In this document: one piece after another, positions 28,292 through 35,051 of the stretch
Layout: the number at the start of each line of letters is the position of its first letter
Numbering within the stretch: position 1 is the stretch's first letter
Sequence record: OL631479.1
DNA length: 64,000 nucleotides
Source: Escherichia phage ECML-10
Direction: 5' to 3' (one strand)
Translations under genes and position numbers: made by a program
The notes under the pieces: model-generated
Database searches by the model: none
What the model saw: only the letters and a program-made list of their open reading frames with translations
What the model was told of the DNA's origin: nothing

Positions 28292-29041
28292 TCATTTAAT
28301 GGTTGCGCCTATGAACGAGAATGACAACGGTCTTGGCTTGATCTCTACACCCAGTCCGTTAACCGTGGTGTATTTCTCTATCAACTCTTCTTTAGAGTCT
28401 CCCCATATAAATTCACCGTCGCGTCGGATAAAATATCTTTTCTTACCGCATTTCTCCGGATCTGGATACCCTTCATCGTCCAACCACCATCTAACCAGTT
28501 TGGCAAGCATGTGTTCTGAATCGGGGTTACAGCTGATAACCATTCTTGATGGATACTTTGACTGAGATCGCAGACGAGACATCAGATAGTCTATCTGCTC
28601 CCATTCGAACTGCGTGCCCTCATCGAAGCAAACCATGGTGTACTCAAGCCCCTGATGGTTAAGCTTATCTTGTACATACTCCATGTGGCAGTATTTTACA
28701 ACAGCTCCCTTTTTGCTTCTATCCCACTTGCCAGTGCTCGGATCAAACCGTGGAAAAATGAACTTATGATCCTTCTCTCTGAACTTTGGCTTAATGTTTT
28801 CAGGCAGATCACTATAAATAGCTACTGCTTTAGGCCATAGTCCACCCTCACCTTCCAACTGTGGGGTTGTTCTTCGGAACATAACCACAGAGCTGTGGGG
28901 GTCATCAATAATTTTAAGTGGCATCAACTGCAAGAGGAACGACTTGCCAGACCCTGCGGCACCGCCGATTACCAAAATATCTGCATCGTTTTCTAGGATC
29001 ATCTTCTGCTTTTCAGAACACGGTCCGTAAATCTTAGACAT
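28292..29041 (-). CDS. terL: Terminase large subunit, N-terminal ATPase part (putative exon 1)
   Basis: Walker A GGAAGSGKS, Walker B-like VCFDEG; 249 aa. Confidence 0.75.
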   Translation of the reverse strand: MSKIYGPCSEKQKMILENDADILVIGGAAGSGKSFLLQLMPLKIIDDPHSSVVMFRRTTPQLEGEGGLWPKAVAIYSDLPENIKPKFREKDHKFIFPRFDPSTGKWDRSKKGAVVKYCHMEYVQDKLNHQGLEYTMVCFDEGTQFEWEQIDYLMSRLRSQSKYPSRMVISCNPDSEHMLAKLVRWWLDDEGYPDPEKCGKKRYFIRRDGEFIWGDSKEELIEKYTTVNGLGVEIKPRPLSFSFIGATIK

Positions 29042-30384: not shown

Positions 30385-30390
30385 AAAAAG

Positions 30391-30488
30391 GTGCTAGGTG
30401 ATGGAATCGAACCACCTATGTATTCAACGACTACCTCGTCTATTTTCAGGATTAAAAATCCTCGCCCTTGCCAAAGGGCTTACCTAGC
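30391..30488 (-). tRNA. Atypical tRNA-like gene (~98 nt), isotype unresolved
   Basis: Perfect 7-bp acceptor and 4-bp D-stem, T-loop TTCGATT; anticodon arm has only 4 bp with loop UUUUUAA (UUU) and a ~30-nt variable region. Confidence 0.4.
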
Positions 30489-30791: not shown

Positions 30792-30879
30792 TGGTGGTGA
30801 GTGATGGAGTCGAACCACCAGAATCGCAATGATAACAGATTTACAGTCTGCCCCGCTACCCCTACGGAATTAACTCACC
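30792..30879 (-). tRNA. tRNA-Tyr (anticodon GUA)
   Basis: Acceptor GGTGAGT/ACTCACC, anticodon loop CUGUAAA, long variable arm, T-loop TTCGACT, CCA encoded. Confidence 0.7.
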
Positions 30880-31009
30880 TAAATACTAATATTTAAATTC
30901 TTTTTAAAATAGCTAGTGTTCTCACCACTAACTATGAGGTATCGGTAAAGTGGTTACCGCCACTTGCCGAAGATTTACTCTGCTAAAGTAAGCTACATTA
31001 AAAAGAACT

Positions 31010-32184: not shown

Positions 32185-32394
32185 TCAACAGATTCCGGCC
32201 TTATCTCGCCTGTCTGCGTATTCTTTAATCGCAACCTCATCTGCATTAGTGACCAGGTCTTCAAAGTAACTCTCAAGCTCCTCGTCAATGTCAGGAGACC
32301 AGCTCTTTTTCCTGTCAGTGTGAATTGCAGACTTGTTGAACTTATTACAGTTCTTTGCTACCGGATTATTCATTAAGCGCTCCTCAGCGTTCAT
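32185..32394 (-). CDS. Hypothetical protein
   Basis: 69 aa ORF overlapping upstream gene end. Confidence 0.25.
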   Translation of the reverse strand: MNAEERLMNNPVAKNCNKFNKSAIHTDRKKSWSPDIDEELESYFEDLVTNADEVAIKEYADRRDKAGIC

Positions 32395-32962
32395 AGTAAA
32401 TTTTATTTAACATTACCTCATCCTTTGCAGAAAGAATACCGAGATATGCATCACCGAATCTACCTGCAACAACCTCTGCGTGATACATCACTTCGTTAAT
32501 ATCGTCAAGAGTGATAACTGGATGACCGTATCTCTCTGAGTATTGTCTCAGAGTGCGATGTAGGGAGTCATCATCATAGGCAGACTTTTTAATATCACAA
32601 ACACGACGAATAGCCTTGATGTCGAAAAACCCTGTACGATACCAACCAAGAAAAAGGTTTCGTGCAGTGTCAACATCTACATCAATACCATCAAGAACCT
32701 TATCTACAAGATAGCTGTCATCCTTTGGACCTGCTTCCTTAGTGCGAATGTAGTTGCCATCTTTTCCAGGTGACAGCTCCTTCTCATCACCAACCTGAAT
32801 GCCATCATTTGGCGGTGTTAACCACTTATCCGGATGCTTACGATCACGAGCGTTAGAATGATTACGCTGGAAACCTGGCTTCCACTTGAAAGTTTTCTCC
32901 ATCTGTTCTTCATTCTGATAACGTTTTGCAATCTTTTCACGGTCATCTTTGCGTGAGCTCAT
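32384..32962 (-). CDS. Hypothetical protein
   Basis: 192 aa ORF downstream of the non-coding repeat region. Confidence 0.3.
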   Translation of the reverse strand: MSSRKDDREKIAKRYQNEEQMEKTFKWKPGFQRNHSNARDRKHPDKWLTPPNDGIQVGDEKELSPGKDGNYIRTKEAGPKDDSYLVDKVLDGIDVDVDTARNLFLGWYRTGFFDIKAIRRVCDIKKSAYDDDSLHRTLRQYSERYGHPVITLDDINEVMYHAEVVAGRFGDAYLGILSAKDEVMLNKIYYER

Positions 32963-33465
32963 AGCTGCCTCCTCTTCAAGTTATAGAAAAACTCACTGTA
33001 TCGCTTTGTAACGAGCTTTTCTATCAAACTGGTGCGATTGCATTACTTGGTATGGTTTATACAGCTGTGGAGCGATTTAGGGGCCTCATTATCCGTTTCC
33101 ACACATAAACTTTATCCAAACTCGCGCGGGAGTCTCTCAACCGACTCCTTACGGCGCTGGCAAGCTTTCGTCGGTGGCCCACATTAGTGCTCGGCCTTTG
33201 GCCTGCGCTATCGCTTCGCTCCCACACATGTTAACAGACCTGCATGTATGCACTTCTGTTATTGTGTGCACTATGGAGGCCCGGCATCTCGCCCCCTCGT
33301 AGGCGAGTGCCAATGAAGGGCCGACACTACCTATAGAAAGTAATAAATTTAAAACATGGTACTTAGGATCTAGTATATTCTACATAAGTTAAGTATATGT
33401 ACTTAGTACCATAAGTACTAGATCTTTTATTTTTTATTATTTAGTTATTTTAGTTATATTCTTTA

Positions 33466-33549
33466 TGTGTCCGTATCACGGACAGTTAGTGTCCGTATTA
33501 CGGGCAGATGTGTCCGCGTGACGGACAGTAGTGTCCGTATCACGGACAG
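33466..33549. repeat. Four tandem 21-bp palindromic repeats (consensus TGTCCGT-NNN-ACGGACA), candidate iterons/operators
   Basis: Units at ~33466, 33487, 33508, 33529, each an internal inverted repeat; preceded by AT-rich tract 33421-33465. Confidence 0.7.
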
Positions 33550-33623
33550 TTACTAGCCTCTGTTCCAGGGCGAACATAAAACATACGAATCCTTATAGTA
33601 CAGATATTTAAGTTTTTACTGGT

Positions 33624-33974
33624 CTAACCAGTTGTTGACATCCGAATAACTTCTTCTGGTGGCAAAACTTTGGAAAATGTGCATCTTTTACCTCTCCCTT
33701 GTGTGGATATTTCAACCACTCCCGCACATTCTAAAGTTTTAACGCACGCTGCTGCTTTTGTTTTCTTTATCCCAACATCTGCTGCAATTTTCCTTGTGCT
33801 GGGTGTGAAGCGTGAATTTCCTCCAAGCTTATACCAGTTGTGCAGGTAGCAGTATACAATCTTGTCATACAAGTCAAGAACAACAACCTCTCCAGTTGTG
33901 TCATTCAAAACTTTTGACATAGACAGTATTTCAAGGGGGACTTTAAGATATAGCAGCTTATCCCCATCTTTCAT
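33624..33974 (-). CDS. Hypothetical protein, possible DNA-binding
   Basis: 116 aa ORF ending ~75 bp upstream of the palindromic repeat array; basic segment RKIAADVGIKKTKAAACVKTLE. Confidence 0.3.
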   Translation of the reverse strand: MKDGDKLLYLKVPLEILSMSKVLNDTTGEVVVLDLYDKIVYCYLHNWYKLGGNSRFTPSTRKIAADVGIKKTKAAACVKTLECAGVVEISTQGRGKRCTFSKVLPPEEVIRMSTTG

Positions 33975-34021
33975 ATCTCCTGATTCTCCTTGTGTGGCAA
34001 TTTTCTTTAAAATAGCAGGGA

Positions 34022-34576
34022 TTACTCCCCGCTGTCAATAGCAAGACTCATTGCAATACGGTATGCCTCTTCTAATGGTAAGAGTCTCCCCCACACATCC
34101 CAACCGACATCAAGCTGCCTGCCAAACAACTGTTGTGTGGTTCCGTGAGCATGACCGAACAGTTGGACTGATCCATGAGGCTTTCTGTTCCACTTTGCAA
34201 ACTGGTAATGGCTCATACAGATCAAATTCTTGTTGTGGCGAAGCTCGTAATAATCTACAACCTCGTGATAGAACTCTTTCATAATTCTGACAGTCGTCCT
34301 TGTGTCATGGTTGCCACGAACAAGAATAATATGTCCGTTCAACATATTTAGAATATCCGGGAGTAAGTTGTTGATATTCTTATCATTAGTGCACGCAATA
34401 TCTCCCAAGTGGAACACAGTGTCTGCAGGTGACACAACAGAGTTCCACTCGGCGATGATTCCTGCATTCATACTGTCAAGATTGTGATCATACTGAGATC
34501 TGTGTTTTTGACATGAATCAAACTCCATGACCCGCTGGTGGAGAAAGTGTGTGTCGCTTGTTACAAAGTATTTCAT
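34022..34576 (-). CDS. Calcineurin-like metallophosphoesterase
   Basis: Motifs GDIACTND, GNHD, GHAHG; start at ATG 34576 (RBS GAGGAA) just after kinase gene stop. Confidence 0.65.
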   Translation of the reverse strand: MKYFVTSDTHFLHQRVMEFDSCQKHRSQYDHNLDSMNAGIIAEWNSVVSPADTVFHLGDIACTNDKNINNLLPDILNMLNGHIILVRGNHDTRTTVRIMKEFYHEVVDYYELRHNKNLICMSHYQFAKWNRKPHGSVQLFGHAHGTTQQLFGRQLDVGWDVWGRLLPLEEAYRIAMSLAIDSGE

Positions 34577-34583
34577 ACATTCC

Positions 34584-34994
34584 TCATTTAAGTTTAATGC
34601 AGTTTTTAAGCTGGCGTTCCATACGATCCACAACCCTGTCTGGAACATCATGAATGCTTTTATTACCGTGGCGGTTTTCAACCACGATCACGGTATAACT
34701 ATACCCATGACTGATTGCCATGTCAATATATTCTTGCACATGTTTTTCTTTTGTAAACGTATTACTTACCACGATACGGTCGTATCCCATACGCATCATA
34801 TCTTCTACGTTATCTTTGCACCATTTTGCTGCAAGTGTTACTTTACTTGCATCCCAGTTGTAATTTCCGTCATCGTCGTACCAGAACATGTCGTTCTCAA
34901 AATGTGGATACAGACCTTCTAAAGATAGAGCATTTGCCAGTGTTGATTTGCCAGACCCTGGTATACCACGCACGATATATAGCATTTTAGACAT
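34584..34994 (-). CDS. P-loop polynucleotide kinase-like protein
   Basis: Walker A GIPGSGKST near N-terminus like T4 Pnk kinase domain; start ATG 34994 with RBS GGGGGA. Confidence 0.5.
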   Translation of the reverse strand: MSKMLYIVRGIPGSGKSTLANALSLEGLYPHFENDMFWYDDDGNYNWDASKVTLAAKWCKDNVEDMMRMGYDRIVVSNTFTKEKHVQEYIDMAISHGYSYTVIVVENRHGNKSIHDVPDRVVDRMERQLKNCIKLK

Positions 34995-35022
34995 AGCAAT
35001 CCCCCGTTTTAATTTTAATGAT

Positions 35023-35051
35023 AGTATACCTAACTGTTTTGTTAATTTCAA
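35023..35051 (-). promoter_or_regulatory. Sigma70-like promoter (TTGAAA-N17-TATACT) for kinase/phosphoesterase genes
   Basis: Minus-strand hexamers in divergent intergenic region. Confidence 0.4.

Follow-up and report, generated by a model that had tools for sequence, protein, structure and literature searches.

A candidate iteron-type replication origin beside a winged-helix protein gene in the rV5-like Escherichia phage ECML-10

Organization of the locus

The region considered here is a non-coding segment of Escherichia phage ECML-10 (record OL631479.1), located at positions 32963-33623 of a 64,000-nucleotide stretch of its DNA, together with the gene of a 116-residue winged-helix protein that borders it (33624-33974, minus strand; homologue of rV5 gp075). 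The whole 64-kb stretch is referred to as the window, and all positions are given within it. The window derives from a Vequintavirus, an rV5-like myophage of E. coli, and the 1.2 kb around the locus is 95-99% identical to 117 phage records. All genes from ~35051 down to the terminase at ~28300 are carried on the minus strand. In transcriptional order, the gene of the 116-residue protein (33974 to 33624) is followed by a 74-bp spacer, four tandem repeats, an AT-rich tract, a set of interleaved repeats, a GC-rich stretch of 300 bp, and the gene of a 192-residue protein (32962 to 32384). An earlier sequence-only reading of this region proposed either a replication origin or a multi-operator site. 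The analysis below suggests that positions 33350-33623, together with the gene at 33624-33974, probably constitute an iteron-type replication origin with its own initiator-like binding protein.

Four tandem dyads occur at a single place in the genome

The four dyad-symmetric repeats, candidate iterons, span 33467-33485, 33489-33507, 33510-33528, and 33531-33549 and have the form GTGTCCGT-N3-ACGGACAG. In each unit, a 3-bp center separates the arms TGTCCGT and ACGGACA, of 7 bp each; units 2 and 3 carry one uncompensated substitution apiece. Successive starts are spaced by 22, 21, and 21 bp, or approximately two helical turns, and Tandem Repeats Finder reports 4.0 copies of a 21-bp period across 33467-33550. 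The four TGTCCGT-NNN-ACGGACA dyads of ~21-bp periodicity described in the sequence-only reading are also recovered by a repeat search and by pattern counts.

The motif is confined to the array. When up to three mismatches are allowed, the pattern GTGTCCGTNNNACGGACAG is found nowhere else in the window (8 strand-hits as compared to 0.23 expected, a count matched in 0 of 100 shuffles). In the complete 135.4-kb genome of the close relative APECc02, the palindrome at up to two mismatches forms a sole cluster, which is these four units. The sequence-only reading had named repeat units scattered throughout the genome as the observation that would speak against it; the single cluster is the opposite of that pattern. 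A palindrome scan of IMG/VR returned only isolated chance matches.

The array is also conserved. All four units and their spacing are kept in each of the eight Vequintavirus loci examined, and the deviations among these loci are mostly single substitutions in one arm. Such one-arm deviations appear to fit sequence-specific protein sites better than hairpins selected for pairing alone. A five-genome alignment, which includes one genome whose copy of the 116-residue protein is only 89% identical, shows almost no change in the repeats, the AT-rich tract, and the interleaved repeats, and free variation in the 25 bp immediately upstream of the array. These variable positions (alignment columns 77-100, whereas the repeats themselves hardly change) belong to the 74-bp spacer that separates the stop codon from the array (33550-33623), the least conserved part of the region.

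The adjacent tract is the least stable DNA of the genome

The 45-bp tract at 33421-33465, immediately beside the repeats and described as AT-rich in the sequence-only reading, is 89% A+T and is a candidate DNA-unwinding element. Tandem Repeats Finder detects 7- and 9-bp mini-repeats within it. Duplex stability was calculated as nearest-neighbor free energy in sliding windows of 40, 60, and 100 bp, and at all three sizes this AT stretch is the least stable DNA both of the 64-kb stretch and of the whole APECc02 genome. The least stable 40-mer, at 33426-33465, has a free energy of -37.4 kcal/mol as compared to a mean of -53.3 kcal/mol with a standard deviation (SD) of 3.4, placing it ~4.7 SD from the mean. 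The second and third least stable 40-bp stretches of the 64 kb are found at 30871-30910 and 33368-33407, respectively.

The tract opens with GATCTTTTATTTT, and positions 33421-33433 are an exact match to GATCTnTTnTTTT, the 13-mer consensus of oriC. This match is the only one in the window and in the genome; being single copy, it carries little weight.

On the other side of the tract, at 33356-33424, inverted and direct repeats lie in AT-rich DNA (ATGGTACTTAG/CTTAGTACCAT, GATCTAGTA/TACTAGATC, and two copies of GTACTTAG). The inverted repeats that the sequence-only reading placed beside the tract therefore exist. Their order is A B ... A' B', which is interleaved rather than nested, and no simple cruciform can form as a result.

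The neighboring protein resembles the DNA-binding domain of RepA_N-type initiators

The 116-residue product of 33624-33974 matches PHROG 12838, annotated as "replication initiation protein", at 2.5e-80. Transfer of this annotation makes it a replication initiation protein; many records label the gene "putative transcriptional regulator". When the profile of the family was compared with the sequences of the Protein Data Bank (PDB), residues 10-93 matched 4RO3 with an expectation value (E) of 1.8e-6. This entry is the N-terminal DNA-binding domain of RepA from the Vibrio cholerae satellite PLE, a RepA_N-type initiator that binds semi-palindromic iterons and drives replication, as demonstrated experimentally (PMC7145576).

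Homologues of the protein were found only within the genus by tblastn and word-indexed protein searches. An exhaustive profile search yielded 15 matches, and a mixed alignment extended the set to 31 proteins. An AlphaFold2 model from 5 sequences was unusable, with a predicted local distance difference test (pLDDT) score of 48, and an alignment of 30 sequences, reached via remote homologues, was used instead. This gave a model of moderate confidence (pLDDT 74).

In a Foldseek comparison of this model with the PDB, 4RO3 is the top match, followed by the N-terminal domains of RepA from pSK41/pTZ2162 (4pql, 4pt7, 5kbj, and 4pta). These five have template-modeling scores of 0.57-0.60 when normalized to the query and 0.52-0.61 when normalized to the target, over 98-118 columns. 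The pSK41/pTZ2162 domains, one of which (5kbj) is an iteron-bound complex, align over 113-118 columns and thus across the whole protein; for ordinary winged-helix regulators (CodY, LexA, and MarR-like proteins) only ~68 columns align. The modeled fold is a winged helix with an N-terminal extension, as in the pSK41/pTZ2162 RepA proteins and the N-terminal domain of DnaD. Consistent with a single domain, the longer profiles of PHROG 8102 and PHROG 428 (337-455 positions) align only by their N-terminal part, over ~100 residues. Because the best match, 4RO3, is the N-terminal domain of PLE RepA, the sequence and the model together indicate that the 116-residue protein is likely a stand-alone, iteron-binding initiator domain of RepA_N-like/DUF6945 type that has no C-terminal domain.

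Gene, sites, and AT-rich tract are exchanged together

A comparison that is informative about the partner of the repeats comes from the IMG/VR contig L123, a Vequintavirus-like genome of 137 kb. The proteins flanking the locus are 84% and 87% identical to those of ECML-10 (the 192-residue product accounting for the former value), with 83% identity across the 3' 360 bp of the intergenic region. Between these conserved borders, the winged-helix allele has 143 residues and is only 27% identical to the 116-residue protein. The TGTCCGT repeats are missing, and at least six ATCTGATRCA/TGYATCAGAT dyads are found there instead. The A/T-rich tract is likewise a different one, and is again the least stable stretch of the locus. 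The gene, its sites, and the AT-rich tract have been exchanged as one cassette, in the manner of the O-ori modules of lambdoid phages. Together with the homology to RepA_N-type initiators, the joint replacement supports the candidacy of the 33624-33974 product as the repeat-binding protein, which the sequence-only reading had put forward.

The same association extends to remote homologues, which occur in Klebsiella phage KpS8 (gp245, PHROG 8102), Salmonella phage PVP-SE1 (gp99), and the metagenomic contigs L117-L120. In each of these, the gene, a set of lineage-specific repeats, and the least stable stretch of the locus are found, always in that order. The repeats include two copies of ATTCCC-N5-GGGAAT in PVP-SE1, two of AGCCTRTGCTCAWTTTGA in KpS8, and two of CAAGTCGTTCGGGTTGC in L118. 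Across five lineages, the protein and its adjacent repeats differ together.

Two further cross-genus signals were considered and rejected. AGATCT/AAGATCT fails as a common origin motif, as AGATCT occurs 41 times in the window with no positional logic, and homology between the AT-rich parts of different genera could not be upheld since the DNA alignment is too weak. As a separate matter, GATC (345 occurrences in the window as compared to ~250 expected) and, above all, AGATCT (~16 expected) are in excess. This may reflect methylation or restriction pressure; the genome encodes several DNA methyltransferases.

The genomic setting of the gene varies among lineages. Outside Vequintavirus, the winged-helix gene adjoins genes for nicotinamide adenine dinucleotide (NAD) salvage and phosphoribosyl pyrophosphate metabolism (NAMPT or NAPRTase, and ribose-phosphate pyrophosphokinase) at a divergence of transcription, as seen at L118 251-1075 and in the flanks of L119/L120 and of L011/L012. 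The Vequintavirus cassette lies 1.4 kb from the transcription switch, which implies a rearrangement.

A GC-rich folded element is shared with capsid-encoding plasmids

The segment at 33031-33329 (minus strand) was absent from the account given in the sequence-only reading. It is 56% GC as compared to 43% for the genome and is highly conserved among the five aligned genomes. Relative to shuffled sequence, the folding z-scores of its two strands are -2.7 and -3.2. No credible Rfam 15 match was found in 32900-33700 at E values up to 5, nor did the plasmid copies described below match any family; at gathering thresholds, the 64-kb window yields only tRNAs and noise.

Individual helices within the element were examined for compensatory change. 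A core helix of 6 bp around the invariant GAAAGCTTGCCAGCGCCG (33140-33175) is 100% paired across 8 sequences with 3 compensatory pairs, and no such pairs arise in slid controls. A 15-bp hairpin (33278-33323) is 100% paired across 6 sequences with 2 compensatory pairs. The sequences used for these tests represent only two or three clades, so that the number of independent events is small. One G-U intermediate favors the gene-sense strand. An RNAalifold consensus of the core was discarded, as it conflicted with the covarying helix, and individually specified helices were tested in its place.

The distribution of the element differs from that of the iterons. In L123, which has other iterons, the element retains 83% identity. 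Circular E. coli plasmids of 13.2-13.7 kb also carry a homologue of it in non-coding DNA, with two blocks of 82-87% identity, and three places on a 39.6-kb plasmid match it as well. The plasmids that share the element (L121/L124, which is NZ_CP020521.1, and L122, L125, L126, and L127) encode a major capsid protein. Their tape-measure protein, a protein annotated as baseplate, and one further structural protein are 25-50% identical to those of the phage, and no terminase is annotated. On the plasmids, 5-7 iterons with a period of 23 bp precede the element. These iterons differ from one plasmid to another, and at least two of the plasmids have AT-rich DNA separating them from the element. A 303-residue helix-turn-helix protein is encoded further on and weakly matches PHROGs annotated as "replication initiation (O-like)".

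Because the phage and plasmid copies differ by compensatory changes, the element appears to act as a folded single strand, either DNA or RNA. Its most likely role is that of a second, initiator-independent part of the origin region. The plasmids look like a hitherto undescribed satellite or mini phage-plasmid family linked to Vequintavirus; no literature on satellites of Vequintavirus was found. A more specific proposal, which we regard as possible and offer only tentatively, is that the element is a new cis-acting signal independent of initiator specificity, acting either as single-stranded DNA at which priming or helicase loading takes place or as a structured RNA, that stays constant when the module is swapped, and that the plasmids are satellite-like parasites tapping Vequintavirus replication or packaging through it.

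Two observations adjoin this subject. The motif (A)TGTGTGG(G/A)A recurs inside the element, at 33094-33106, 33173-33185, and 33217-33229, and copies of its reverse complement, TTTCCCACACA, lie upstream of the element on the plasmids. Sites of this type on the plasmids are located at 52-64 and 985-997 of L121 and at 148-160, 358-370, 814-824, and 965-975 of L126. The motif has two mismatches to the 9-bp DnaA box and could be a protein site. Separately, the APECc02 genome (L008) contains a second long stretch without an annotated gene at ~33376-35046 of its own numbering, which falls outside the 64-kb window. This stretch includes the second least stable DNA of that genome (33930-34029) and has two short matches to the 13.7-kb plasmid. 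It could represent a second origin-like or cis-acting region.

Comparison with characterized origins

The locus shows several features of the iteron-type class of origins. Where that class has at least three directly repeated sites in helical phase, four are present here, at 22/21/21 bp; a candidate unwinding element adjoins them in the form of the AT-rich tract; and the site occurs at one genomic place. DnaA boxes are optional in this class, which includes ori-lambda.

The layout of ori-lambda is particularly close. In the annotated record, four dyad iterons of 18 bp, spaced by 20, 24, and 23 bp, are followed by an A/T-rich tract and then by a palindrome. Both loci thus contain four dyads of 17-19 bp roughly two turns apart, an A/T tract of 40-45 bp, and then inverted repeats; the repeats at 33356-33424 correspond in position to the lambda palindrome on the right of its AT tract. 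Each site is part of a transcribed unit, and in both loci the initiator gene and its sites are exchanged between relatives as a specificity module, as in L123. There are also clear differences. The lambda O protein and the 116-residue protein share no sequence similarity (BLASTP E 0.3). The lambda origin is inside the O gene, whereas the repeats of ECML-10 begin 74 bp downstream of the gene. The C-terminal domain of O recruits P-DnaB, and the 116-residue protein has no counterpart of it. Finally, ECML-10, a large virulent myophage, has a helicase-primase and a polymerase of its own.

RepA_N-type initiators (PLE RepA, 4RO3; pSK41/pTZ2162 RepA, 4pql, 4pt7, and 5kbj) provide the best matches to the protein in both sequence and fold, within the DNA-binding domain. 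The protein departs from them in having no C-terminal domain, in narrowly missing the Pfam cut-offs, and in not matching PF06970. In addition, the dyads have no poly-A tract at their center, the iterons are located outside the gene, and the element resides in a virulent phage of a Gram-negative host.

The iteron plasmids of Gram-negative bacteria (pPS10, R6K, F, and P1) share the combination of tandem iterons, an AT-rich candidate unwinding element, and an adjacent gene for a winged-helix, initiator-like protein, and the edge of the AT tract has one exact match to the 13-mer consensus of the E. coli oriC unwinding element. In contrast to these plasmids and to oriC, the locus has no cluster of DnaA boxes and a single 13-mer, and its protein has one winged-helix domain rather than two.

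For the GC-rich element, a lead is offered by comparison with single-strand initiation signals of origins (the ssi signals of G4 or phiX type) and with primer RNAs such as ColE1 RNA II. Like these, it is folded and strand-specific, lies beside a candidate origin, and carries compensatory changes. Unlike them, it has no sequence or Rfam match.

A proposed mechanism of initiation

If the locus is an origin, initiation would involve: binding of the winged-helix protein to the iterons; opening of the AT-rich tract; and entry of the replication machinery of the phage.

In the first step, the 116-residue protein, expressed early, would bind each of the four 17-bp dyads as a dimer. With half-sites 10 bp apart from center to center and sites recurring every 21-22 bp, all four dimers would be placed on one face of the helix. 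Next, the resulting nucleoprotein array would strain the adjacent 45-bp tract, whose 89% AT content would favor opening for the helicase-primase and polymerase of the phage. Both enzymes are encoded by rV5 (PMC3606486).

The final requirement is recruitment of the replisome. As the 116-residue protein is a DNA-binding domain only, this would depend on another factor, of either the phage or the host. Transcription through the region may contribute, as at ori-lambda. The folded element at 33031-33329 may also help, as a priming or loading signal on the single strand or as an RNA.

Points against an origin and alternative roles of the repeats

Between the two possibilities raised in the sequence-only reading, the analysis favors the origin and weakens the operator. 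This preference is based on the AT tract being the least stable DNA, the ori-lambda-like layout, the restriction of the motif to one place, and the finding of no sigma-70 promoter or intrinsic terminator in a scan of both strands of 33000-33620.

Several points weigh against an origin. The first concerns the protein. It stops at residue 116, and the model shows an N-terminal-domain fold only, with no C-terminal recruiting domain. Lacking the C-terminal domain that RepA_N initiators and lambda O possess, the protein could equally be a regulator. The Pfam models closest to the proposed assignment are narrowly missed: PF22182 (DUF6945) scores 27.1 bits with a cut-off of 28, and PF13730 (HTH_36) scores 24.5 bits with a cut-off of 25. 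PF06970 (RepA_N) gives no match at E values up to 1. The second concerns the DNA. The exact DnaA box TTATNCACA is absent from the region, and no cluster of boxes occurs there; the one site with a single mismatch, at 33112-33120, corresponds to background density. The cumulative GC skew reaches its minimum ~1.4 kb from the locus, where the direction of transcription switches. AT-rich, easily melted DNA is also typical of promoters. The third concerns the relatives. The gene is immediately preceded by the sites in PVP-SE1, KpS8, L118, L119, and L120, where they occupy a divergent promoter region as the sites of an autorepressor would, and this position of the module in most remote relatives keeps an autoregulatory reading alive. 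Lastly, binding of the protein to the repeats, melting of the tract, and firing of an origin at the locus are steps that we infer.

The serious rival among the explanations considered is an operator array. On this view, the winged-helix protein would serve as a transcription factor, cooperatively occupying the repeats to repress or activate the downstream operon (gp073, tRNAs, lysis genes, and terminase) or to regulate its own gene, and the AT tract would be a promoter or UP-element. The "putative transcriptional regulator" label carried by many records agrees with this role, as do the winged-helix regulators among the weaker fold and hidden Markov model matches and the missing recruiting domain. 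The divergent arrangement in the five relatives listed above agrees with it as well; in PVP-SE1 and KpS8, good sigma-70 hexamers can be recognized there by eye. Initiators of iteron plasmids often autoregulate via their own iterons. In ECML-10 and in L117, however, the sites are downstream of the winged-helix gene. The promoter scan of 33000-33620 gave nothing sigma-70-like on either strand of ECML-10, and the rV5 annotation marks neither a sigma-70 promoter nor a terminator in the equivalent region. The best homologues, which align along the whole protein, are proven initiators rather than regulators, and an operator leaves unexplained why the flanking tract should be the least stable DNA of a 135-kb genome. 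We consider an operator array unlikely on this balance.

A packaging initiation (pac) region is improbable. In this case, the repeats would be recognized by a protein resembling a small terminase subunit, and the GC-rich element would be shared because the plasmids depend on the phage terminase for packaging. Vequintaviruses package by a headful mechanism and are circularly permuted, with an unmapped pac site (PMC8407724, PMC13211470), and no literature on a Vequintavirus pac site was found. The gene for the large terminase follows on the same strand, ~4.6 kb downstream, and plasmids that encode a capsid protein and have no annotated terminase carry the GC-rich element. Against this, the detectable homologues of the 116-residue protein are replication initiators or DnaD-like proteins, not terminase subunits. 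The compensatory changes show selection on a folded single strand, a structure for which a double-stranded pac site has no use, and a pac site has no need for the most meltable DNA of the genome alongside it. The plasmids must also replicate themselves, and it is their own iterons and Rep-like gene that adjoin the element.

The four units might instead act at the level of RNA, as tandem mRNA hairpins past the gene with a role in stabilization, processing, or termination of the transcript. A hairpin with a stem of 7 bp and a loop of 3 nt can form from each unit, and the array is positioned 74 nt past the stop codon within the transcription unit. No T-run follows the array on either strand, however, and no terminator-like site was found. 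All four units have the same arm sequence with mostly one-sided deviations, which points to sequence-specific recognition; strict phasing at 21-22 bp would be meaningless for RNA; and the array is swapped along with the protein allele in L123. This explanation is very improbable. A centromere-like partition site bound by a winged-helix adaptor of TubR/ParR type deserves the least credence of all. Tandem short repeats bound by small DNA-binding proteins are typical of partition centromeres, and TubR is a weak fold match (3m8e, E 0.02), but that match is confined to a 66-column core, no partner NTPase gene lies beside the site in this virulent phage, and the AT tract would be left unexplained.

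Significance of the proposed origin module

The iteron-type origin proposed here belongs to a well-known type, and no paper describing the repeats as an origin was found in the literature. The authors of the rV5 genome looked for an origin by skew analysis, which revealed only switches in transcription direction and did not locate it (PMC3606486). Less expected are the capsid-encoding plasmids and the folded element that they share with the phage. The rV5-like phages are widely isolated and are used in the biocontrol of E. coli O157 and in therapy cocktails, and a defined module of origin and initiator would make the replication of this group testable. Such a module would explain a hypervariable "specificity cassette" between otherwise near-identical genomes. 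It would also provide an engineering handle, for example for replicons whose amplification is triggered by infection. Through the folded element, the phage is connected to small plasmids that encode a capsid protein; if these are satellites, they would represent a new family of E. coli satellites with a new kind of shared cis signal.

Flanking genes and other features

The 192-residue protein gene (32384-32962, minus strand; rV5 gp073 homologue) is taken from the open reading frame list and is the first same-strand gene past the non-coding region. Its product belongs to PHROG 12226, of unknown function. Beyond it are more small genes, seven tRNAs, spanins, and the terminase. The divergent-transcription switch, at ~35051/35095, lies in the other direction.

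The sequence-only reading was correct in finding no open reading frame of 60 or more residues within 32963-33623; the longest have 56, 54, and 51 residues. Some records annotate frames of 31-56 residues in this region, including rV5 gp074. Comparison of related sequences led us to judge these small frames non-coding: the plasmid copies are gapped by 4 and by 1-2 columns across the 56-residue frame, and ECML-10 has a 1-bp indel relative to its relatives.

Some GenBank entries carry a "repeat_region" at the repeat locus without comment. Eighteen records named "Campylobacter phage" (MG0656xx) match this E. coli phage group at 97% identity across the region and are probably mislabeled or contaminated. 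One of the MG0656xx records, MG065672.1, begins 3 bp ahead of the first iteron.

Two observations concern the genes further downstream. ARAGORN predicts a tRNA-like gene of 99 nt at 30390-30488 (minus strand) with a four-base anticodon (atcc) left undetermined. It has a weak Rfam tRNA score of 35.5 bits, sits in the middle of the tRNA cluster, and is unannotated in APECc02 and MiataMamis. The large terminase gene is split (28292-29041, minus strand, and upstream of it; 29184-31623 in L009). In APECc02, an endonuclease VII gene is located between two coding sequences annotated as "terminase large subunit", which suggests a homing-endonuclease insertion, an intron, or an intein.

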